Under the pieces are notes generated by a model. The model saw nothing but the letters and a program-made list of their open reading frames with translations, did no database searches and was not told where the DNA came from. DNA of 64,000 nt, from positions 14,469 to 78,468 of IMG/VR virus record IMGVR_UViG_3300025864_000001. One strand, given 5' to 3'. Every line of letters begins with the position of its first letter. Position 1 is the first letter of the stretch. The stretch is from a virus. Position numbers and translations under genes: made by a program. This document shows, in pieces, positions 3,239-18,453 of the stretch.

Positions 3239-4105
3239 TCAGAGGTTATTTTTCTTACAAAAATCATTTATCCGGTAGAACATCTCGGGGGCATCATCAA
3301 GAAGGCGCATCCTCACACGTGCCATATTACCCCTGTCTGTCTTAGTTGTACCCCAATAATGGGTATATTTATGACGGGCATCTTGTCCGGCTTTTACAGC
3401 ATCCTTATTGATGACCTTCACCTCTGGTCTTAACCCGTGTGCTTTTATCAGCGATGCAGCAAAATACTGCTCATGGAATAGATTCTGGTGTATTACGATA
3501 TCGCCATACTTCTTGAAAAACAAGTTTTGGTTCTCCGGTGCAAAGATATACTCCGCACTACATTTTATCCACTCTTTAAAGAACTCCATGTCGTGGCCAC
3601 CACATATGCCACAGTTATAGGCGAAGTCTGTAACTTTATTATCTTTAATTATCTGAGGCTTAACAGGTGCTTTGTCAAAACACGGTCTTAACAAATCATA
3701 GTAATGGTATCCCTTTAAGTGCATTGGCTCATGCGACTGAAAACACAAACGTGCATTTAATATCCGTGGTGGTAATGGGTCAAAGAGAAACACATCATTA
3801 TCGAGATGTACAAACGGCACGGTCTGTTCGTTGTACGCGAGTAACTTACCGTATGCCCAGAAGTATTTGGACACGGATTTCATCTCATTGAGCTTATCGG
3901 AATAGCTTGTTATTGGCAATCCGAGAGGTTTTATAACATCGAGACCCCATTGAGATGAAATAAACTGCACCTCCTTAAAATGACGGGAGGCGCAGAGTAC
4001 TGAGAGTGCTGTAGTGAATAGAAAATCACTATACTTCACGAATCCACATCTATTGCCGAAGGATTCATCTGGATTGAAGTATGAGAATACTGCTTTTTTT
4101 ATCAT
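3239..4105 (-). CDS. DUF6734-like putative GT-A glycosyltransferase
   Basis: FWAYGKLLAY..Q..PFVHLDNDVFL (DxD), YNCGICGG and EQY motifs. Confidence 0.65.
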   Translation of the reverse strand: MIKKAVFSYFNPDESFGNRCGFVKYSDFLFTTALSVLCASRHFKEVQFISSQWGLDVIKPLGLPITSYSDKLNEMKSVSKYFWAYGKLLAYNEQTVPFVHLDNDVFLFDPLPPRILNARLCFQSHEPMHLKGYHYYDLLRPCFDKAPVKPQIIKDNKVTDFAYNCGICGGHDMEFFKEWIKCSAEYIFAPENQNLFFKKYGDIVIHQNLFHEQYFAASLIKAHGLRPEVKVINKDAVKAGQDARHKYTHYWGTTKTDRGNMARVRMRLLDDAPEMFYRINDFCKKNNL

Positions 4106-4411: not shown

Positions 4412-4936
4412 TTACACTGCTAATGTGGTAAATGATTTGACAATACCATACTGGGTCATGTTCGCGCTGGTTACAGTCTTTACCCTGTAATAATACTTGG
4501 TGTTTGCTGTTAATCCTGCAAGCACTGCTGTCACGGGAGATAAAGTTGCAGATGTTAGTGCACTTTCACCGGCGGTGGCACTTGTTCCAAGTTCTTTTGT
4601 GGTGCCATACTCAAAGGTCACAACGGTTGATACGCTATGGGTGTTTGCAGATCCTTTCAGCGTTGCTCCAGTTGCAGTTATTGAACCCGCTTCATTGGTA
4701 ACAGCTACCGCAGGCACATCAAGATCCAGTTCATAGCCATCAGCCAGCACCAATGCTGCATTGGAAAGGCGTGTTTGCAGTTCATCCCAAGGCAACTCTA
4801 TCTCCGGCATGTCGGCAATGATCTTGCCCTGTGTGCCTTGTCTGCCAGGACGGCTACCTGATTTCGTTCTTTCCCCAACTTCTATGGTGAGAACATTTAT
4901 TCTGAGTTTTACTCTAACATCTCTTACGATACTCAT
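4412..4936 (-). CDS. fibronectin type III domain protein, probable virion decoration
   Basis: ITATGATLKG..FEYGTT..LAGLTANTKYYYRV..YG..KSFTT FN3 pattern. Confidence 0.75.
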   Translation of the reverse strand: MSIVRDVRVKLRINVLTIEVGERTKSGSRPGRQGTQGKIIADMPEIELPWDELQTRLSNAALVLADGYELDLDVPAVAVTNEAGSITATGATLKGSANTHSVSTVVTFEYGTTKELGTSATAGESALTSATLSPVTAVLAGLTANTKYYYRVKTVTSANMTQYGIVKSFTTLAV

Positions 4937-8612: not shown

Positions 8613-9119
8613 TTATTCGCTTGTTAACGTGCCATCATCAGTAAAATAATACTCATTCGCTTCAATGGTATCAATTATTGCCTCCTCGCTGGTCCTGTAC
8701 TCGTACTCCTTTGTTAATATTATCCTGTAATCCTCACAAAGAGACTTTAAAAATTCATCTTCTAACTCTTCTATCTCTTCCTCTACTGATTGTTCTATCC
8801 TTCCATTTTCTCCGGTCAATGCTTCAAGGTCATTTAAAAACTCTTTTGCTGTGTCAAATGTATCACATTCATTGCCGTGACTTACTTTTATTAGTTCGGC
8901 TGTGTCTGCTGCTGATACGATAAAATTACCTTTTACATAACTTGCTCTATCAATGTCAAAGCCTGTTATCTTAAAGTTGATATTTTCTGCATCCTCATAT
9001 GTTGATTCAAACCAGTTAGAAAATTCCACATTAATAGCTGATAGTTTATTTATTGCGTTCTTTTTTGCCTCTTCTGATAGTTCGCTGAACTGATACAGGT
9101 TAATAGTTTTTGTTTTCAT
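8613..9119 (-). CDS. acidic early phage protein
   Basis: LYQFSELSEEAK...YEYRTSEEAI...ANEYYFTDDG family pattern; strongly acidic. Confidence 0.7.
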   Translation of the reverse strand: MKTKTINLYQFSELSEEAKKNAINKLSAINVEFSNWFESTYEDAENINFKITGFDIDRASYVKGNFIVSAADTAELIKVSHGNECDTFDTAKEFLNDLEALTGENGRIEQSVEEEIEELEDEFLKSLCEDYRIILTKEYEYRTSEEAIIDTIEANEYYFTDDGTLTSE

Positions 9120-9143
9120 CTTATTTTGTGTTTTTGGTGCCGG

Positions 9144-9416
9144 TTAATATTGTTCTGTAACATCATATACAAGCTGTTCCCATCTATCTAAACCGTTCGG
9201 GCGTCCTCCTTCTTTTAATTTGGGGCACAGTTTAATAAACTTAATAGCATATTGTAAGGCCTTTAATAGGTCCGGGGCTGCTGCAAGTAGTCGCGCGTTG
9301 GCTTCCTGTTCTTCGTTATCCTTATCAAAATAAGGAATAAGGGCAAGCGTTTTCCCTGTCTCTTGTGGGTAAATTTGTCCGTCCTTAGTTATCCATGTTC
9401 CTTCTGTGTGTTTCAT
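9144..9416 (-). CDS. early protein, MKHT.G.W / ANARLIAAAPDLL family
   Basis: MKHTEGTW...EANARLLAAAPDLL. Confidence 0.75.
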   Translation of the reverse strand: MKHTEGTWITKDGQIYPQETGKTLALIPYFDKDNEEQEANARLLAAAPDLLKALQYAIKFIKLCPKLKEGGRPNGLDRWEQLVYDVTEQY

Positions 9417-9458
9417 CGTCTTGTGTGTTTAATGGTTAATACTCTGGTTTACTGTTTA

Positions 9459-9641
9459 TTATAGTCCGCAATCTGCATCAGACTGCATTTCATACTCTAA
9501 TTCGTAGAGTTCACTGGCTCTGTCTGCGCAATCCTCGCAGATATTGACATCAAGAGGGCTAATTTCCCCGTTCTCTATCATATCAACCTCTGTTTTAGAT
9601 AGTTGAAATTTCTCTTTACATATAATACAGGTGCGTTTCAT
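9459..9641 (-). CDS. small zinc-ribbon protein
   Basis: CIIC...CEDC. Confidence 0.65.
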   Translation of the reverse strand: MKRTCIICKEKFQLSKTEVDMIENGEISPLDVNICEDCADRASELYELEYEMQSDADCGL

Positions 9642-9652
9642 AGTGTTGTGTT

Positions 9653-9745
9653 TTAAAGGTTTTCAACTATTGTTTCTATTTCTTCATCCGTAGACCCTTG
9701 GGCCCTGAGGTCCTTTACAAATTCAATTAATTCACTGGTTTTCAT
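9653..9745 (-). CDS. 30-aa early peptide (not in the ORF track)
   Basis: MKTSELIEFVKDLRAQGSTDEEIETIVENL, preceded by the AAAAACACAAAC motif seen before neighbouring genes. Confidence 0.55.
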   Translation of the reverse strand: MKTSELIEFVKDLRAQGSTDEEIETIVENL

Positions 9746-9778
9746 TGGTTTGTGTTTTTAATTAATACTAATCAGATG

Positions 9779-9893
9779 TAAATGTAATACATATATATCA
9801 TATAAACAAATCTTTTTACATATTTATTTTGCATTATTATATTATTATTATTGCTTTTTACTTGTTTATATGATATTTATAGTTTTACTTTGT
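9779..9893. promoter_or_regulatory. divergent early promoters sharing a 15-bp inverted repeat
   Basis: ATATCATATAAACAA (9795-9809) and TTGTTTATATGATAT (9862-9876), each followed by a near-consensus -7 box. Confidence 0.65.
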
Positions 9894-9919
9894 ACTGTTA
9901 ACCAATAAAAACACACACA

Positions 9920-10300
9920 ATGAAAATTAAAAGCAGTAACGCAAGTAGTTTTTTAAATCATCTCAAAACATTGGCCTATCTTGGTAATGTTGATGAGTGG
10001 AAAGCAGAGAACCTTTACAAGAAATTAAAAAGGATCGAATCAAGAATGAACCGTTTAATGTGCGATGAGTGCAACGGGACCAGACCAGGCACCGAAGAAG
10101 AGAACGAAAAGAAAGACGAAAAAGTAATTGATCGAGTTAAAAAGCTCCTTCCGGTTGCTACTGGCGTATTCCTTAACGGGGACCCTCGCGGCTATACTCT
10201 TAAAATCAAGAGCGAAGATGTTAAAACTTTGAACGAGGCCGGCAAAATCAATATTTATCAGGATTGGGGCGGCTATGGTATTTTGGCCCCTGAATTTTAA
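9920..10300 (+). CDS. early hypothetical protein (NGDPRGY family)
   Basis: 126 aa with LNGDPRGYTLKI; first gene after the rightward promoter. Confidence 0.75.
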   Translation: MKIKSSNASSFLNHLKTLAYLGNVDEWKAENLYKKLKRIESRMNRLMCDECNGTRPGTEEENEKKDEKVIDRVKKLLPVATGVFLNGDPRGYTLKIKSEDVKTLNEAGKINIYQDWGGYGILAPEF

Positions 10301-10301
10301 A

Positions 10302-10356
10302 GGTTTGCTGATGATTGTTAAATACATGAAAGCGGGCTAATTACCCGCTACAAACC
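10302..10356 (+). ncRNA. hammerhead ribozyme (type I)
   Basis: stem I GGTTTG/CAAACC, CTGATGA core, short stem II, GAAA, stem III GCGGG/CCCGC, CUA cleavage triplet. Confidence 0.85.
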
Positions 10357-10373
10357 AATAAAAACACAAAGAA

Positions 10374-10637
10374 ATGACAAACACACTAATTAACACAGAT
10401 TACCGGACCTATTTAGTAAGGTTCAAATTTCAATCAACATACTGCCGTTTTATCGTGCAGGGTTCCGGGCTTATGGACTGCTTAAAACAGTATGATCAGA
10501 ACGGGGTGGAATCCATTAAAGAATTTGACCCGCTCAAAAGTACATTTAAACGCATTTCCCGGGCTGATCTCCTGAAGGCGTTCAAATGGGAAACAGAAAC
10601 GTATGAGTATTTAAAAAATCATTACTTTTTCAAATAG
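10374..10637 (+). CDS. early hypothetical protein
   Basis: 87 aa; upstream 16-mer identical to that before gene 9920. Confidence 0.75.
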   Translation: MTNTLINTDYRTYLVRFKFQSTYCRFIVQGSGLMDCLKQYDQNGVESIKEFDPLKSTFKRISRADLLKAFKWETETYEYLKNHYFFK

Positions 10638-10708
10638 TTTTTATTGGTTGCTTGGTTAATACTTTGCGCCTGGGGTGTGTTCCTGGGCGCAATTAACCAC
10701 GCTTAACC
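10637..10708 (+). ncRNA. long hairpin with segments antisense to early-gene start regions
   Basis: GTTTTTATTGGTT, TGGTTAATACT and GTGTGTT complementary to early start regions; long imperfect stem. Confidence 0.55.
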
Positions 10709-10723
10709 GTAAATATTAATATT

Positions 10724-10924
10724 ATGGCACGAAAAAAATGTACTTTGGAATCTATCGCGCTGACTACTTTAAAGCCTGGTGCGTTCCTTTACTCTCATAA
10801 GGCCGATAAAGATTTAACGGCTATATCTCATTATTATCGGGTGCGGATAGCTACTGAGCGTTTAATATTGATCAATCCGCAGACCTGTAAAGCTCAAAAA
10901 ATTACAAAAGTTACTTTACTCTAA
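10724..10924 (+). CDS. early hypothetical protein
   Basis: 66-aa ORF. Confidence 0.6.
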   Translation: MARKKCTLESIALTTLKPGAFLYSHKADKDLTAISHYYRVRIATERLILINPQTCKAQKITKVTLL

Positions 10925-11384
10925 TACCTTATATTATGGAATATCTTTATTTATTAATTCCTGGTGTTCTGATCCTGATGATCTTCTTACCCTCTATTAA
11001 ACCCTTTAATACTGTGAAAAAATGACAATAGAACGCACCGCAACCAATTTAATGACCGGACAAATAAGAACGGTTATTTTTACACGTGTTGAGGATCATA
11101 ATTTTAATATTGCCAATCTCTGGCGGTCCTCTGATGGTGGTTATTATACCTTTGGGATCCTCGGATGGTTTAACGTTGATAAATACCTGAAACATGATTA
11201 AGCGCGTTTTAAGGCATCAATTTGCCCCGTTCCTACTTATCCCCCTGTCTTGTATCTATTGGGGTGTGTTCTGGGCCCTGGGGGTCCTGCTGGGCTTAAT
11301 GTAGCCGGGAGAATGCAGGGCCAAAGGTTTTAATATTACAATCAAATAGTATCACAATTTTTTAATTTATAAAAACACAGAAAA

Positions 11385-11597
11385 ATGAAAGAAATTAAAT
11401 TTAACAGAAATACGTCATTTTTAGGGCGTAACGGCATGTTTAAACAATCCGGTATCCGAATAAATGAGATTACTGGCGCAATAGCTTTGTACCCGATCAC
11501 CAGTAAAGGACAAATCGGACGAGCATGTTTAACTATTCCAAAAGATAAGTTACAGGAATTTATGAATGCACTATTATTAACCCCTCTCACAGATTAA
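11385..11597 (+). CDS. early hypothetical protein
   Basis: 70 aa; AAAAACACAG upstream motif. Confidence 0.65.
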   Translation: MKEIKFNRNTSFLGRNGMFKQSGIRINEITGAIALYPITSKGQIGRACLTIPKDKLQEFMNALLLTPLTD

Positions 11598-11668
11598 GTT
11601 TTTGCCCGTTACAAGTCGGGAATAATACAGAGTACAGGGGCGCAAGCCTCTGAAATGTAACCAAAAAC
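11598..11668 (+). ncRNA. twister ribozyme (type P3)
   Basis: P3 GTTTTTG/CAAAAAC, P4 CCCG/CGGG with loop TTACAAGT, P2 TACA/TGTA, GAGTA, P1 CAGGGGC-GCAA-GCCTCTG; both pseudoknots (UAC/GUA, GU/AC) pair. Confidence 0.88.
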
Positions 11669-11677
11669 ATAGAAATT

Positions 11678-12028
11678 ATGAAAGATCAAAAACACACAGC
11701 AGGAAATTGGACACGTGGAACTCGTACCAATACAAAAGAATGGATGCAAATAGTTAGTGATGGTATTATACCAATTGCAGAAGTAAAACCATTACATAAA
11801 ACCGGATACAGAGAAAAGGATGACTTTCAAACAGAAGAAGCAAACGCAAAATTAATTTGCGCAGCCCCAGACTTACTAAAAGTTTGCATTGACTTACTTA
11901 ACGCATTTGTCCACAAAGAGAATGACAAGAAAGGCAACCAGACAAGAACGGACATTTTTAAATACTGTCCTGAATTTGGGGAAATAGCAGTAGCAGCAAG
12001 ACACGCAATCGAAAAAGCAACGGAATAA
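11678..12028 (+). CDS. early protein, ANAKLIAAAPDLL family
   Basis: KHTAGNW...EANAKLICAAPDLL...KATE. Confidence 0.75.
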   Translation: MKDQKHTAGNWTRGTRTNTKEWMQIVSDGIIPIAEVKPLHKTGYREKDDFQTEEANAKLICAAPDLLKVCIDLLNAFVHKENDKKGNQTRTDIFKYCPEFGEIAVAARHAIEKATE

Positions 12029-12149
12029 TGAAAACAATTTGTACACATTGCGGGAAAAAACAAACCGCAAAAGAAAAAGAGTATTCTTTAAATAGCGCAA
12101 AATGTAAGTTTTGTAAAAAAGAAGGTACGTTAATAGAAATAACAAAGCA

Positions 12150-12392
12150 ATGAATAAACCAACCTACACACCGGAACAGATGAACGGCAAATATATTGCC
12201 TGTTCTGTATTACTCGATCCTCCCGGCTTGGGTGCAGTCGAATATGCCACAGGACCACGCGAGGGATTGCCCGTACTCTACAATTCCATAGCATCAGCAG
12301 AAGATGATTTGTTTTGGGATGACTTATGGGATCACATTATACCCGCAAGTGAATATTTTGAGCGGGTGGCAACAAATAATTTTAAGTTTTAA
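12150..12392 (+). CDS. hypothetical protein
   Basis: 80-aa ORF. Confidence 0.6.
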   Translation: MNKPTYTPEQMNGKYIACSVLLDPPGLGAVEYATGPREGLPVLYNSIASAEDDLFWDDLWDHIIPASEYFERVATNNFKF

Positions 12393-12413
12393 AATATATA
12401 AAAAAGCATAATT

Positions 12414-12692
12414 ATGAAACACACACAAGGAGAATGGATTATGCACAATAACGTGTTTAATTCTGTTGTAATCACAAAAATAGACAGTGGTTATAAAGTT
12501 ATCGGATCATTCACAAATGATAATAAATTGATCCCAGAAAACGAAATGAGGGCAAATGCAAAACTCTGCGCAGCAGCCCCTGACTTACTGGAGTCCTGTA
12601 TCAAATTATTTGAAATTGTTGATACAAGATCCCAATCCGATGAAGATATTTGCTTCATGGCATATAAAACCATTAAAAAAGCCACCGAATAA
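12414..12692 (+). CDS. early protein, ANAKLIAAAPDLL family
   Basis: MKHTQGEW...ANAKLCAAAPDLL...KKATE. Confidence 0.75.
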   Translation: MKHTQGEWIMHNNVFNSVVITKIDSGYKVIGSFTNDNKLIPENEMRANAKLCAAAPDLLESCIKLFEIVDTRSQSDEDICFMAYKTIKKATE

Positions 12693-12982
12693 TGCCACAA
12701 TTTAACCTCTTTGGAGAGATAGACGTACAGACCATGCCGGAGCCGGAAATGGTTTCCGAAATGCCTGAGCCTGAGATGCCGCACCCTCGCAAGTCAAAGA
12801 AGAGAAAGTCTTTTGATATTGGCATTTGTCGTGCGTGTGGTCAGTTACTACTCGATGATCCTGATAACACCAGGATTAAGATTGATGATGAGTTATGTGA
12901 GGATTGCGATGCTACATTAAGGGCAAAATACAGTCAGTATAAAAATTTTGCTCTTATACGAGCATTGAGAATGCGTAAATAA
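12692..12982 (+). CDS. zinc-ribbon protein with an MPEPEM repeat
   Basis: CRAC..CEDC; duplicated MPEPEM. Confidence 0.6.
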   Translation: MPQFNLFGEIDVQTMPEPEMVSEMPEPEMPHPRKSKKRKSFDIGICRACGQLLLDDPDNTRIKIDDELCEDCDATLRAKYSQYKNFALIRALRMRK

Positions 12983-12997
12983 CTTAAAAATAATAAC

Positions 12998-13236
12998 ATG
13001 AAAACTATTGAAGTTTCAGCCAAATCAATGACTGAATTTATTAAAAGCACAAAACTTCATTTTGATAATATTGATAAAATTATGAAGTTGCCGGAATCTA
13101 ATGAAAGAGGCAGGATGATAGCCAAAGAAATGAAATGAATCGGATTAATTTCGATTATGATGCTTTTCTTCATTTTGCGCTTAATATCCCAATGGACAAA
13201 CTCCAATCGGTGAGAAATAAAAGTTTCAAATTATAA
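12998..13236 (+). pseudogene. 77-aa gene interrupted by a 5-bp duplication
   Basis: GAAAT GAAAT at 13127-13136; removing one copy gives one open frame from ATG 12998 to TAA 13236. Confidence 0.55.
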
Positions 13237-13246
13237 AAACAATATT

Positions 13247-13477
13247 ATGAAAACAAATCCAAATAATCCAATTAATGCAATAGTAGGAGACAGTACAAAA
13301 TTTGCCGGACTTACCAAGCGTGAATACTTTGCAGCAATGGCAATGCAGGGACTTCTTGCAGGACATTACGAATACTTTACAGGTAATGCAGATGTTTCTG
13401 TACCAATGGAAATTGCTAAATATGCAGTTTATAATGCAGATGCTTTAATTGAAGAACTTAATAAATCAGAATTATGA
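13247..13477 (+). CDS. conserved phage protein (GLTKREYFAAMAMQG family)
   Basis: GLTKREYFAAMAMQGLL...AV..ADALIEELN. Confidence 0.8.
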   Translation: MKTNPNNPINAIVGDSTKFAGLTKREYFAAMAMQGLLAGHYEYFTGNADVSVPMEIAKYAVYNADALIEELNKSEL

Positions 13478-13974
13478 AAAAACTATTTTTTTTACTTTTG
13501 ATCAGCGTGTCATTCTCAGCAATGGCACAGCGTTATCCCTTTGCCCTCTATGTATCACACCAGCCGGTTGACTTTGGTATTGGTGTGCGTGGTGACTATT
13601 ATATACATGGCTTAGGCTTGTATAGCTCTGTGTCTTATGGCAATTGGGGACTTTACAGACAGTATGATATAAAACACCATGTAAAGCTATCAACGGGTGT
13701 GTTATTGCCTCTGCCAGATTATAATGGTGCTTCATTTGATGTTACTGCCGGCATTAATTATCATCTTTTAGGATCTGTTATGCTCGATAACTCCCCTCTT
13801 GACCCTAAAATCTTTAACCCTTGGAGTTTTGAGTTAGGGATTACAGCTAAATTAAAGCGTTTTTCATTAGGTTTGCGCACTGACATTTTGCGTTGGGAAC
13901 CATGCGTGGACGTAGGTTTTAAACTATTTAAAGGACAATATTATGACAAAGCAAAAAGTAAATCCTGTAAGTAA
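13474..13974 (+). CDS. secreted, probable outer-membrane beta-barrel protein
   Basis: Sec signal MKKLFFLLLISVSFSAMA; alternating aromatic/Gly beta-strands. Confidence 0.55.
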   Translation: MKKLFFLLLISVSFSAMAQRYPFALYVSHQPVDFGIGVRGDYYIHGLGLYSSVSYGNWGLYRQYDIKHHVKLSTGVLLPLPDYNGASFDVTAGINYHLLGSVMLDNSPLDPKIFNPWSFELGITAKLKRFSLGLRTDILRWEPCVDVGFKLFKGQYYDKAKSKSCK

Positions 13975-14167
13975 TCGTAAAATGTGGTGCTATTATGCGC
14001 CCGATGGGTGGCCACAAGTAAGAACATTAGCTGAGTCTCGAGTTGAATGTAGGCTGATGCTTAATAAATATGACTATCCTGCTACATGGCAGAAAGCTGA
14101 AAGTCAAGGTGCTTTTATACACAAAGTTGTTGTAACAATAATTGAACCTTTAAAATTAAGCCAATGA
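13943..14167 (+). CDS. hypothetical protein
   Basis: 74-aa ORF. Confidence 0.55.
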   Translation: MTKQKVNPVSNRKMWCYYAPDGWPQVRTLAESRVECRLMLNKYDYPATWQKAESQGAFIHKVVVTIIEPLKLSQ

Positions 14168-14517
14168 GAAAAAAGCAAATTTTCGTTCAAACGCAGGGTG
14201 TAGATAAGAACAGGGTCTCCCCCTTTAAGCCTATGGGCTTTGTTGCGCTTAATTTTGACAATATCAAAATGACTATTGATGCGTATGATTATTCAGGTGT
14301 GCTTGCTGAACCACGTGAGGACTCTCTTGTTGAGATCATGGACGAAAAAGAAGTATTTCAATTCACCCCTGCACAATTACTGCAAGCAATAAGATTTTTT
14401 CAACGCTATGCCGAAATGGGGAAGGATGTGGTGCGCTTTAAGAACATCTTCCATGTCATTATGCCAGACAGGTATAAGAATGCCTTACAAGTCACGAAAC
14501 GAGGTCTTAAATTTTGA
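14164..14517 (+). CDS. hypothetical protein
   Basis: 117-aa ORF with ATGA coupling. Confidence 0.65.
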   Translation: MRKKQIFVQTQGVDKNRVSPFKPMGFVALNFDNIKMTIDAYDYSGVLAEPREDSLVEIMDEKEVFQFTPAQLLQAIRFFQRYAEMGKDVVRFKNIFHVIMPDRYKNALQVTKRGLKF

Positions 14518-14545
14518 GTTTTAAAAATAGTTTATCTTTGTACCG

Positions 14546-14971
14546 ATGCAGACACAAGACACCATATCAAAAAAGAAGTTGGACCGGATAAAAATAATTT
14601 ATAACGGGGACGTGGAGATAATAGATTTCCTTTCCGATCTGAAAAGCAGGGATGTGATAGCCGGACTACAAGACCTCATCCATGATAATAAAGGACTGCC
14701 CTGTGCCCTCCTCTTTAATTGTGGATGTGATGATATTGTGGTAATGATACTCTATAAATCACCTTTTGCGTTCAATGATCCGGGTAATACTCTCATGCTT
14801 TATGCCGGAAATGAACTACATGAACTGATGGTGTACTTTAGACATCTTTTGGATAACACTTCAAAAGAGAAAAGCGTTATTAACCAAGCATTAACTGATA
14901 TTGTGCAACTACTGTACCAGGAATGGAACAGATTGCAAGACGATAATGTTCAGTCTGATTTTTTAGGCTGA
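14546..14971 (+). CDS. hypothetical protein, probably near-leaderless mRNA
   Basis: 141 aa; TATCTTTG box at 14533-14540 lies 5 nt before the ATG. Confidence 0.65.
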   Translation: MQTQDTISKKKLDRIKIIYNGDVEIIDFLSDLKSRDVIAGLQDLIHDNKGLPCALLFNCGCDDIVVMILYKSPFAFNDPGNTLMLYAGNELHELMVYFRHLLDNTSKEKSVINQALTDIVQLLYQEWNRLQDDNVQSDFLG

Positions 14972-14979
14972 CATAGAAC

Positions 14980-15018
14980 GGGTGCCGGTTTGTGTGTTCC
15001 GGTGCCCTTTCTTTTTTT
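14980..15018 (+). terminator. intrinsic terminator with a loop antisense to early start motifs
   Basis: GGGTGCCGG-TTTGTGTGTT-CCGGTGCCC followed by a T-tract. Confidence 0.7.
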
Positions 15019-15045
15019 CTAAACACTATAATCAAATTAATTGTA

Positions 15046-15609
15046 ATGAAGATGATCACAGGAACTTTAATAACATGGTTTTGTTTTCTCACTTGCTCGG
15101 CACCTCCTCCTTCGGTGGCGCAGCAAAAAGAAAACATTGAATGGGTTAAAATAGAGATTAATCGCATAGACTGTGAAGAGCAGCTTGCACTCTTTATTGA
15201 ACACTTGGGTATCCGTGAATCGGGTAATCGGTGGCAGATAATCAATGCAATCGGATGTATGGGTAAATTTCAATTTGCTCACAATACTCTTGAGTGTCTT
15301 GGTTACGGCTACATCACACCTCAGCAGTTCGCTCATAACCCTGAAATCTTCCCCGAAGCACTACAACGTCAGGTGTTGCTTGCCCTCTTTAAATCAAATG
15401 AAATAGCACTTAGAGACTATTTCTATTATTGCGGGCAGGAAATAGCAGGTGTGACAATAACCAGATCGGGAATGCTTGCTGCGGCTCATCTTGGAGGTGC
15501 CTATTCCGTAAAACTCTTTCTGCTTAGCATGGGGCATGTCAATAGACAAGACCTGAACCAGACATCAATAAAACACTACCTGAGCGAATTTGCCGGGTAT
15601 AATATTTAA
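15046..15609 (+). CDS. lysozyme-like / lytic transglycosylase with a signal-like N-terminus
   Basis: GIRESGN..IN.IGCMGKFQF and LAAAHLGG motifs. Confidence 0.7.
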   Translation: MKMITGTLITWFCFLTCSAPPPSVAQQKENIEWVKIEINRIDCEEQLALFIEHLGIRESGNRWQIINAIGCMGKFQFAHNTLECLGYGYITPQQFAHNPEIFPEALQRQVLLALFKSNEIALRDYFYYCGQEIAGVTITRSGMLAAAHLGGAYSVKLFLLSMGHVNRQDLNQTSIKHYLSEFAGYNI

Positions 15610-15619
15610 AAACACGACT

Positions 15620-15937
15620 ATGACAAAAGACAAGATTATTGAAAAACAGAAAGAACTGATTATCGTATTAACAACGGCCTTGGATTTCTTGGCAGATAAC
15701 AATCTGATTAAAGAAAAAAAAAATAATAACGATATTGATAATGAGCCTTTAATTGATTGCGTGAACAAGGCAGCCAAATTAAGAACTGAGGTTAAAGAAC
15801 TTGAATCAGAACTTTTTAAAGAAAAAACTCAATGCCCTTATAAAGGTGAAGAAGGTAATACATATGATCTATGTCCTTCATGGATCGCTTTTACAAATGG
15901 GTGTGCTGATTGTGTTAAATATCATAAAAATCAATAG
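15620..15937 (+). CDS. hypothetical protein
   Basis: start MTKDKII; Cys-rich C-terminus. Confidence 0.6.
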   Translation: MTKDKIIEKQKELIIVLTTALDFLADNNLIKEKKNNNDIDNEPLIDCVNKAAKLRTEVKELESELFKEKTQCPYKGEEGNTYDLCPSWIAFTNGCADCVKYHKNQ

Positions 15938-16246
15938 CTATGAAAAAAGACAAAACACCTATTGAATTTGAAGATCCTGATCCCTTTGACGGGATGAAAG
16001 CTCTTGGATGTCTGCTTATCGGCTCGGTACTGATCGCAGTAGCACTATTTCTGTTTGGAGTACTCATTAAAGTAATACAATGACTATGAAACTATTCTTA
16101 GCTATTTTAATGGGTGTCATCGCCATTATGTTCCTGTTCTTTGCCGGATTCGCAGAGGTGGTGGCAGTTGCCTTTGTTTACGTACTGCTCGCAATGTTGA
16201 GCATGCTCTTATCATTCTATTTTTACTTTGGTAATATCGAGTTTAA

Positions 16247-16510
16247 ATGAGCAGACATTACGAGCCACGCCAAAAGAAAGTCATCCCTCCTGTAAGGCGT
16301 ATGAAGATTATACGGATTGATGCCAGAACGGAAATTGAGGTACTTGCAAGCATCCCTGATGATGTGGCCAGAGAACGGTTCATCGCAAAACGAAATATGG
16401 GGCCACGTGCTCCGTTTGCCTCTCTATATCCTGCTGATGAAAAGCCGGAAGTGCCACAAGAAGAACTTGCATCAGTTGTAGATGATGAGGATTTACCTGA
16501 AACAGAATAA
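16247..16510 (+). CDS. hypothetical protein
   Basis: 87-aa ORF. Confidence 0.6.
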   Translation: MSRHYEPRQKKVIPPVRRMKIIRIDARTEIEVLASIPDDVARERFIAKRNMGPRAPFASLYPADEKPEVPQEELASVVDDEDLPETE

Positions 16511-16736
16511 CTATGGACAAAAGACTATTTGCATTTTTAAAAGATCGCAAGATATTCACAGGTGGTCATAAAACTTTGCGTGAATACATGGACAATAAAG
16601 AGCAAAACACTGAATGGAATGATCGTGCCCGGAAAGGGCACAAGAAAGCCAAGATGAAATAAATTTGGTTATTAAATCTACACTTCGTACTTTTGAAGTG
16701 TTATAACGGCAATATTGCCACAAAACAACAAAAACA

Positions 16737-17180
16737 ATGCGCATGAAAAAAATGCTTATCCTCGCACTGATCGCACTCTTTTACATAGTGTCCAGTGCGT
16801 TGACACCGCCTCAAACGGTGCCCGTTGACCAAGATGTTGGCTATTCGTTAATTGCGAATCAGAACACATCAGTAATAACAATTCTTCCAGTTCAAAGCCC
16901 GGTTATTGCCGGTGAAGTAAGTTACACAATTACCAGGGGGTCCAGTGTGATTGACAAGGGTCTGATTAATTCAGATGCCATAGTGTATAATCATCAGGAA
17001 AGTTTCACATGTAATACTTACTACACAATTGACAGGCTTGATTCAAAACTGCCGATATTAGCAGGATTTGAAAATCAAATAAAGAACCCTCCGGGTAGAA
17101 ACAGTATGAGCACAGACTTGGGAGGACTGCTAATTGAATATGATGTTCCCCGGGACGGGGCAAAGTCCAGACATATCTAA
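16737..17180 (+). CDS. secreted hypothetical protein
   Basis: signal peptide MKKMLILALIALFYIVSSA; own TACTTTTG box at 16688-16695. Confidence 0.6.
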   Translation: MRMKKMLILALIALFYIVSSALTPPQTVPVDQDVGYSLIANQNTSVITILPVQSPVIAGEVSYTITRGSSVIDKGLINSDAIVYNHQESFTCNTYYTIDRLDSKLPILAGFENQIKNPPGRNSMSTDLGGLLIEYDVPRDGAKSRHI

Positions 17181-17205
17181 GAAAAGCCAATTGGCATAAA
17201 TAATA

Positions 17206-17236
17206 AAGCACCTCGTAAATGGGGTGCTTCTTTTTT
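17206..17236. terminator. intrinsic terminator between convergent units
   Basis: AAGCACCTC/GGGGTGCTT stem plus T-tract. Confidence 0.7.
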
Positions 17237-17253
17237 ATGATGATTAGTATTAA

Positions 17254-18453
17254 TTACCTTATTTCTTCTATATTTCCGACTTGAGCCGTGAATGTTCCTG
17301 AGCTACAAATCACTGTTAGATTTATATACCAAATTCCTGATATAGTAATTGCAGGAGTAGTGGGTGCTGCCACATAAGTTGGTAATTGAACTGCTCCGGC
17401 ATAGCCAACTCCCTCTGCTTTAATTGTGGTTGCTGACCGGATAGTTATTAATACATCAAATCCCGCCCTCGCATTTGCCGCCTGTGCTGCTGACGTTACC
17501 GCCGTCCAATCAATTGTATCAGAGATTGTCCCTAAATTCCCGCATCTTACTTTAAATATCAATGTACCTGTTGACGATGAATTACCAATGATCCATGCTC
17601 GGAAAGTTGATCCTACACTTGCACGTGCTGCTGGTATTTGTAATTGAAGTAATACCTTTTCAGTTGTGCCGGAAGTAACCACCGGAGCCAATAAATTTGC
17701 AAATAGCCTTACAGGGGCGTCAGTCCCATTTTGTCCGGGAACTCCTTGATCCCCTTTATCTCCTTTTAATCCATCAAAATAGTCAATATTTTTAACAGGG
17801 GTATTACCGGGAATACCTTGTATGCCCTGATCTCCTTTAAGTCCTTGCGAACCATCATTGCCGGGCAAACCTTGATCTCCCTTGTCTCCTTTTGAACCCG
17901 GAGTCCCAGGAGCACCGTCTTCTCCATTGAAATAATCAACATTAAGCACAGGAGTACGCCCATCTTCTCCGTCCGCGCCTGCCTGCCCTGTTGCACCATC
18001 ATTACCAGGGATGCCCTGCATGCCTCGTGAACCCGACTGTCCTGCCTCCCCATTTGTACCATTTTCACCTTTAAGGGATAATAACCATTCCGATTCTATC
18101 CCCGTAAAACCATTCTCAACTGCTACCTGATATGCTGACTTACCATCAGTAGACGGAATTTGATCTGCAATAGTGGCAATCTGTTCCGGGGTCAACTCAA
18201 CTGCAGGCGGTGGTATTTGCGCAGCAATCTCCATTATCACAGCAGGCACCACGGATAATGCTATTTCTGCTATATGCCCAAGTAGATTAATAACACCCCA
18301 GCTACCACGAGGAATCTGAGCCGATGCTGTGCCAATAACAACATCTCCGAGATTAGCAAAATCAAATGAGTCTTTCTTTGTGGCATGTAGCTTAACCGGA
18401 TCACCAATTTTGATCGCACGTCCAGAAGCGTTTAGAAGTCTTTTCTGTGCCAC
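17254..18453 (-). CDS. collagen-like fibre protein
   Basis: G-X-Y repeats, DGKSAYQVAVENGF.G.E.EWL.SLKG and TPV..DYF motifs; own promoter box 18473-18480; GTG start. Confidence 0.8.
   Translation of the reverse strand: MAQKRLLNASGRAIKIGDPVKLHATKKDSFDFANLGDVVIGTASAQIPRGSWGVINLLGHIAEIALSVVPAVIMEIAAQIPPPAVELTPEQIATIADQIPSTDGKSAYQVAVENGFTGIESEWLLSLKGENGTNGEAGQSGSRGMQGIPGNDGATGQAGADGEDGRTPVLNVDYFNGEDGAPGTPGSKGDKGDQGLPGNDGSQGLKGDQGIQGIPGNTPVKNIDYFDGLKGDKGDQGVPGQNGTDAPVRLFANLLAPVVTSGTTEKVLLQLQIPAARASVGSTFRAWIIGNSSSTGTLIFKVRCGNLGTISDTIDWTAVTSAAQAANARAGFDVLITIRSATTIKAEGVGYAGAVQLPTYVAAPTTPAITISGIWYINLTVICSSGTFTAQVGNIEEIR

Follow-up and report, generated by a model that had tools for sequence, protein, structure and literature searches.

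Intergenic type I hammerhead ribozymes of phages and prophages are well established and have been known since 2011 (PMC3088659; reviewed in PMC6155905). We asked whether positions 10302–10356 of a phage genome hold such a ribozyme when a highly conserved base pair next to the catalytic core is replaced by two uridines, and what such an element would do for the genes around it. The window, by which we mean the whole 64-kb stretch of DNA analysed, makes up the final 64 kb of an IMG/VR virus record that is 78,468 bp long, complete and has direct terminal repeats. Small genes form a rightward operon here, and the element is on their coding (+) strand, between a gene for a 126-aa protein (9920–10300, + strand) and a gene for an 87-aa protein (10374–10637, + strand), both taken from the list of open reading frames and both without a family match. 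In agreement with the initial annotation, a 1-nt gap (base 10301) separates it from the stop codon of the upstream gene, which ends at 10300. When ten proteins of the operon were searched against Pfam and PHROGs, the only family found was phrog_1273 (function not known), in two downstream genes.

The hammerhead consensus comprises C3U4G5A6NG8A9 and G12A13A14, an A15–U16 pair and a nucleotide other than G at position 17 (H17) (PMC7151607). Reading the sequence of 9800–10700, we recovered the hammerhead proposed in the initial annotation base for base on the + strand. The 5′ strand of helix I (GGUUUG, 10302–10307) pairs with its 3′ strand (CAAACC, 10351–10356) and leads into the core strand C3 U4 G5 A6 U7 G8 A9 (CUGAUGA, 10308–10314). 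Helix II and loop II, TTGTTAAATACAT (10315–10327), read UUGU-UAAAU-ACAU, that is, U10.1·U11.1 followed by U–A, G–C and U–A pairs and a UAAAU loop. The second core strand (GAAA, 10328–10331) supplies G12, A13 and A14 (GAA, 10328–10330) and A15.1; A10331 pairs with U10349, which is U16.1, and between them lies the helix III hairpin GCGGG-CUAAUUA-CCCGC (10332–10348), which is present in the minimum-free-energy fold. A10350 occupies position 17. The cut predicted from the hammerhead consensus falls between A10350 and C10351, the bond named in the initial annotation, and the RNA downstream of such a cut would begin with the 3′ strand of helix I. With helix I open and helices II and III capped by loops, the topology is that of type I. 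The 55-mer folds into helices I and III as drawn, with z = −2.9 relative to shuffled sequences. With a view to a tertiary contact between loop II and helix I or its extension, we noted that helix I of the element can also be extended by UUUUA/UAAAA beyond an AA/AA internal loop; because this extension is not conserved in the closest relative, L127 (we designate loci outside the window by L numbers), where it cannot form, we do not claim it. The initial annotation had counted only 3 bp in stem II; the count is correct, yet a helix II of 3–4 bp is normal for the family described below, and stem II in bacterial hammerheads is commonly as short as two pairs (PMC3088659).

A search with the Rfam type I model, the check proposed in the initial annotation, returned no match to 10302–10356. 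At Rfam gathering scores, a twister ribozyme and no hammerhead was found in the whole window; the Rfam hammerhead models reported nothing in the 251 bases of 10200–10450 at E values up to 10, RF00163 run over the whole 78-kb genome gave nothing at 10302–10356, and Rfam at E values up to 5 yielded no additional ribozyme candidates in 9400–17400. The lack of an Rfam match could be taken to mean that the element resembles a hammerhead by chance, in an AT-rich intergenic gap, and the motif CTGATGA(N)GAAA alone does occur three times in the window against 2.3 expected. The Rfam negative is uninformative here, however, because it extends to canonical G–C-closed relatives in the same family; the U·U-closed copies in L002 and L004 are missed too. 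For the canonical copy in L148, the best Rfam models were RAGATH-1-hammerhead (23.2 bits, gathering score 56.3) and Hammerhead_3 (20.4 bits, gathering score 48.5), and none of about 30 family copies examined reached any Rfam hammerhead threshold. These thresholds are thus a practical blind spot for the phage family.

We built two covariance models of our own: R1 from five equal-length family copies, and R2 from 44 realigned viral-contig copies, all of which have G–C or A·C at 10.1/11.1 and none of which comes from the window's group. With filters off and both strands of the 64-kb window searched, R2 scored 10302–10356 at 50.4 bits (E = 1.3e-11), and its next-best match in the window had an E value of 0.88. 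The sole non-standard pair that R2 marked in the element was 10.1/11.1. R1 found no further hammerhead copies in the genome of the window phage and none among the 150 other Bacteroidia genomes searched.

To define the family, we searched viral contigs for the pattern CTGATGA N6–24 GAAA N8–36 AACCAATAAAA, which matched 82 loci against a rough chance expectation of about 4. Family members have helix I GGUUAA/UUAACC with AAUAAAA following the ribozyme, a helix II of 3–4 pairs with a U-UNAAU-A loop, a variable, covarying helix III hairpin, and a cleavage site of UA or UC. The CUGAUGA strand is invariant except at the free position 7, the UNAAU-type loop II is conserved across the family, and helix II of the window (10315–10327) aligns column by column with the canonical G–C-closed helix II of the other members. 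R1 found 55 copies in 96 loci, often 2–4 per locus (L181, L147, L134 and L152). In these four loci, arrays of three or four hammerheads stand between successive small genes (L181, 673–1558; L147, 4166–5627; L134, 852–1661; L152, 3502–5677), with helix I GGUUAA/UUAACC throughout and no copy at any Rfam hammerhead gathering score. Judged from the viral contigs, the family is widespread in uncultured phages.

All three helices of the family are supported by covariation. In the 36 distinct copies aligned, standard pairs fill 98.2% of the helix cells, compared with 27–40% when the partners are slid, and double-sided changes occur in 14 of 16 pairs; none of 500 shuffles reached the observed values. 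Five of the six helix III pairs show double-sided changes, and helix I pairs covary too. Fitting the alignment of these copies to the model favours pairing, but the covariation in helices II and III far exceeds such a bias. The A15.1–U16.1 pair is A–U in every one of the 36. Placement is conserved as well: among 37 distinct copies with a downstream open reading frame, 32 have the ATG 13–18 nt past helix I. In 13 copies the upstream stop codon ends 0–4 nt ahead of helix I, and in 10 the UAA within GGUUAA serves as that stop codon. The search pattern had constrained neither of these distances. The window copy shares this layout, with the stop 1 nt before helix I and an A-rich leader, AAUAAAAACACAAAGAA (10357–10373, + strand), that spans the 17 nt to the ATG. 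Together, the intact core, the open helix I, the capped helices II and III and the covariation-backed family membership bear out the type I assignment.

The closest relatives show how this element has changed over shorter distances. L127 is an 8-kb piece of JAENXA010000001.1 (G001:C255; 72,687 bp), a contig binned in a Prolixibacteraceae metagenome-assembled genome; 17 or more of its genes are syntenic with the early region of the window, their proteins being 36–89% identical. About the size of a phage genome, the contig is probably a related phage rather than host DNA and is therefore weak evidence about the host. Across the hammerhead and leader, the sequences of the window and L127 agree at about 95% of positions, and the four differences in 55 nt form two paired sets: G6:C50 of helix I is A:U in L127, and the C·A at the top of helix III is U·G. 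The L020 hammerhead differs from that of the window in two loop bases and in nothing else. Chance resemblance is thus refuted by the covariation in the family, the match to an independently built model and the comparison with L127 and L020, with the compensatory changes in relatives and the family-wide placement pointing the same way; we regard its probability as negligible. It is close to certain that 10302–10356 is a hammerhead-family element under selection.

The stretch with the promoter and leader before the first gene (9840–9925) is 92% identical in L127, whereas no similarity was detected between the first and second operon genes of the window and those of L127. The exact reverse complement of the leader motif, which we call the anti-leader (TAGTTTTTATTGGTTG), follows the second operon gene in L127, as it does in the window, and the L127 gene is non-homologous. 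Between 9840–10720 of the window and 696–1500 of L127, the modules are 92–95% identical and the two intervening genes unrelated. Three other soil or peat studies contributed contigs whose alignment with the window is confined to about 10298–10364 and whose flanks are unrelated. No RNA run was among the sequencing runs listed as containing the element. A blastn search of 9000–13000 against a phage collection gave no match, and a search for related loci with the two flanking proteins found no relatives. To judge from these alignments, the arrangement looks like gene-cassette exchange at conserved non-coding joints.

Retention of a module while neighbouring genes are exchanged supports a function, but it also allows the module to be a recombination joint. 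The element might then be a catalytically dead relic kept as a linker for recombination between early genes, or a structured 3′ end or spacer of the upstream message. The near-identity of the modules around unrelated genes, the soil contigs that have the modules alone in common and the absence of the highly conserved G10.1–C11.1 pair (PMC4209133) all fit such a relic, and a recent recombination event at a conserved linker, instead of selection for catalysis, could explain why the element is so similar in L127. A linker, however, needs no intact 11-nt core, no A15.1–U16.1 pair, no non-G nucleotide at position 17 and no compensatory changes in its helices. U·U copies in unrelated groups (see below) also keep full helices I and III and the UH site, none of which their search pattern demanded, and a linker role and catalysis can coexist. 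We consider a dead relic distinctly improbable, and an element retained as a ribozyme the better account of its conservation.

The feature that sets this copy apart is the pair closing helix II. The U-U at 10.1/11.1 that the initial annotation had singled out is real (U10315 and U10327) and is conserved in the relatives L020 and L127. The G10.1–C11.1 pair closing helix II is highly conserved in hammerheads (PMC4209133), and a divalent ion such as Mn2+ is bound by the A9 phosphate and N7 of G10.1 (PMC7151607, PMC5408937). The pair is a highly conserved metal-binding position, not an absolute requirement for a hammerhead; because N7 of G10.1 is a core metal ligand, U10.1 could impair catalysis. 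Among the 36 distinct family copies, the 10.1/11.1 identities are G–C in 27, U·U in 8 and A·C in 1 (L210), although the eight U·U copies came mostly via a pattern demanding that helix II. Members of the family depart from the consensus at this level in one further way, an extra U after A9 (L147 and L191).

To find further U·U copies, we searched three collections with the pattern CTGATGA-TTGT-N3–9-ACAT-GAAA, which gave 101 distinct matches. Eight of these passed a strict hammerhead filter (4 or more pairs in helix III, 5 or more in helix I and a UH site), compared with a mean of 0.2, and 2 at most, when the flanks were shuffled. Because CTGATGA and GAAA were required by the pattern, there is some circularity in the conserved core of these copies. 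Strict and weaker matches together form at least six groups that differ in helices I and III: the window with L020 and L127; L023, L040 and L045; L012; L095; L002 with L003 and L011; and L004. Two observations are free of the bias of the search pattern. The second copy in L002 (L002b, TTAGC...GCTAT) retains U·U while its inner helix II pairs covary, and the L023 locus has both a U·U copy and a G–C copy (3420–3481 and 4509–4570), with related helix III sequences. Among the viral-contig copies with the AACCAATAAAA leader, the window copy is the sole U·U example, so the form is rare. We found no description of a natural U10.1·U11.1 hammerhead in the open-access literature, and nothing specific there on hammerheads in crAss-like phages.

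We also observed U·U-closed hammerheads with a 2-bp helix III and a 3–4-nt loop in L016, L021, L037, L070, L078, L091 and L128, all on metagenome contigs or contigs of metagenome-assembled genomes; some of them may be chance passes of a loose filter. A 2-bp helix III with a small loop is the layout of the dimer-acting type I hammerheads in animal repeats (PMC4209133), and because this set shows that layout, the U·U form may not be confined to phages.

How might a hammerhead work with U·U at this position? Our reading of the comparisons is that U·U is probably a tolerated, selected variant of G–C, one that would lower or retune the rate or the metal dependence of cleavage and leave activity in place. 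A rival reading holds that the ribozyme is tuned or conditional: by removing the N7 ligand of G10.1 and weakening helix II, U·U would make cleavage slow, partial or ion dependent, and so set the ratio of joined to separated messages at one junction rather than cut constitutively. The Mn2+ site described above speaks for this rival, as does the Bcep176 ribozyme, a phage intergenic hammerhead that is likewise off consensus at a metal-linked position; this A6C core variant is still active, cleaving poorly with Mg2+ and well with Mn2+ (PMC7151607), but its change lies inside the core at A6 and that of the window at the helix II closing pair 10.1/11.1. The retention of U·U in L002b while the inner pairs covary is in keeping with tuning, and the presence of U·U and G–C copies together in L023 would fit tuning specific to a junction. 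Coexisting forms fit a neutral, tolerated substitution equally well, however, and ion specificity is nowhere shown in the sequence. We consider such tuning unlikely, and favour a tolerated and selected U·U in a ribozyme that cuts. Hammerheads with an extra nucleotide between A9 and G10.1 are already known (De la Pena and Flores 2001, as cited in PMC4209133); these too depart at the junction of core and helix II, and L147 and L191 have exactly such an extra U, but they keep G10.1–C11.1, whereas the window copy has an unpaired U on both strands.

Twister ribozymes are said to have been seen near hammerheads in bacteria and phages, in work by Roth et al. in 2014 and Weinberg et al. in 2015. Neighbourhoods of the two classes are established (PMC5408937, PMC6765202). 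The same operon of the window phage contains, 1.2 kb downstream of the hammerhead and in an equivalent slot, a type-P3 twister ribozyme at 11598–11668 on the + strand (Rfam RF03154; 59.6 bits, gathering score 39.9). The twister begins 1 nt beyond the stop of the open reading frame at 11385–11597, and its end lies 9 nt ahead of the ATG at 11678. As in the known neighbourhoods, then, twister-P3 and hammerhead occur together, here each 1 nt past a stop codon and 9–17 nt before a start codon; unlike in those neighbourhoods, both classes here precede near-identical AACCAA(U)AAAAC leaders. The 3′ end of the twister with its leader, GUAACCAAAAAC AUAGAAAUU AUG, is much like the leader that follows one of the L134 hammerheads, UUAACCAAUAAAAAC CUAGAAAUU AUG, and the twister 3′ strand and leader also resemble the AACCAAUAAAAAC leader of the hammerhead family. 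From the Rfam alignment and the U–A cleavage rule (PMC5408937), the twister would be cut near 11653/11654. The resulting leader would measure about 24 nt; that of the hammerhead would be 23 nt long. Neither L127 nor L020 has a twister at the Rfam gathering score. The presence of a bona fide twister in the same operon and the same kind of slot supports a cleavage role for the hammerhead.

The leader itself recurs within the operon. The leader motif AACCAAUAAAAAC stands before the first gene of the rightward early operon (9900–9912, + strand, 7 nt before ATG 9920), and the identical 13-mer, AACCAATAAAAAC, occurs at 10353–10365 (+ strand), where it ends 8 nt before ATG 10374. The initial annotation had remarked that the 3′ strand of helix I overlaps a motif in the start region of gene 10374, and this 13-mer is that overlap. 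R1, run with filters off, found no hammerhead at the 9900–9912 leader; a 13-mer before the first gene without a ribozyme fits a model in which cleavage gives internal cistrons the promoter-derived leader of the first. No + strand match to the Bacteroidetes-type −7 box TANNTTTG was found in 9640–9920, and the box is not enriched in the window. The anti-leader of the window, the exact reverse complement of the 13-nt motif, lies at 10637–10649, its first base being the final one of the gene 10374–10637 stop codon, so that in a message cut by the hammerhead the newly formed 5′ leader could base-pair with the 3′ end of that message. L127 preserves this arrangement of leader motif and anti-leader (747–763 and 1486–1500), around a non-homologous gene.

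GC-rich hairpins with GGGGTGTGTTC(C)TGGGC lie in two other gaps of the operon, at 10650–10700 and about 11255–11300 (+ strand), and match no Rfam family; the one other weak match of R2, with the E value of 0.88 given above, is the minus strand of the first. A hydrophobic open reading frame of 29 aa at 10937–11026 (+ strand), MEYLYLLIPGVLILMIFLPSIKPFNTVKK, is below the size of default open reading frame lists and has a homologue, MENLFLLIPCALIALILLPSVKPFKAVKR, in L020, directly behind the U·U hammerhead. A second CTGATGA...GAAA in the window (10975–11019) lies inside this reading frame and has neither helix I nor helix III, and we rejected it as a ribozyme.

Family membership, structure and covariation, conserved placement and the conserved U·U are shown by these comparisons; cleavage and its effect on expression are inferred. 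The element is likely to be an active ribozyme that cleaves itself and so divides the early transcript at 10350/10351. Its role is most likely the cutting of early polycistronic RNA, in line with the transcript processing proposed for clustered hammerheads of phages and prophages (PMC3088659, PMC6765202). While the polycistronic RNA is being made, the element would fold into three helices around the intact core and cut itself between A10350 and C10351. The upstream message, carrying gene 9920–10300, would then end in the folded ribozyme body with a 2′,3′-cyclic phosphate, and the downstream message, carrying gene 10374–10637, would begin with a 5′-hydroxyl on a free, A-rich 23-nt leader, CAAACCAAUAAAAACACAAAGAA. 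The two cistrons would thereby be uncoupled in stability and translation, and the twister 1.2 kb downstream would do the same job at the next such junction.

Known phage and prophage type I hammerheads of the RF00163 clan have the same core, three-helix junction, open helix I and short helix II as the window copy, and they too lie between small phage genes, with several ribozymes per operon. They differ in having G–C at 10.1/11.1, where the window copy has U·U. The family to which the window copy belongs differs from the clan in two further respects: its members, canonical ones included, score below every Rfam hammerhead gathering score, and its fixed helix I, GGUUAA/UUAACC, is fused to the AAUAAAA leader at a fixed distance from the start codon. 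The RAGATH-1 hammerhead (RF03152) resembles the L148 copy in type I topology, a GACUU start of helix II and a capped helix III, but the 5′ hairpin of RAGATH-1 is absent from the window copy, whose 5′ flank is coding sequence.

The kind of element described here is thus known, whereas the recurrent U·U form, the cassette of fixed helix I and leader, and the interchangeability with a twister were not found described in the open-access literature. A natural replacement of G10.1–C11.1 recurs in several unrelated hammerhead lineages, and comparing the native with the restored pair could show the weight of the metal site in a full-length ribozyme. We put forward one wider proposal tentatively, as a possibility against which we would still lean, and only as a whole: that U10.1·U11.1 hammerheads are a recurrent subclass without the G10.1 N7 ligand and with their own ion need or rate, and that, in this phage group, near-invariant modules (promoter and leader, hammerhead or twister and leader, anti-leader hairpin) would supply all early cistrons with one and the same processed 5′ leader, AACCAAUAAAAAC, and at the same time serve as joints where phages swap unrelated early genes. 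For the phages themselves, the finding means a regular cassette of stop codon, ribozyme, about 16 nt and start codon, in which hammerhead and twister are interchangeable before the same leader and conserved modules outlast the swapping of the genes that they separate. With such a layout, the idea that one message is cut into single-gene messages with a standard leader becomes concretely testable.
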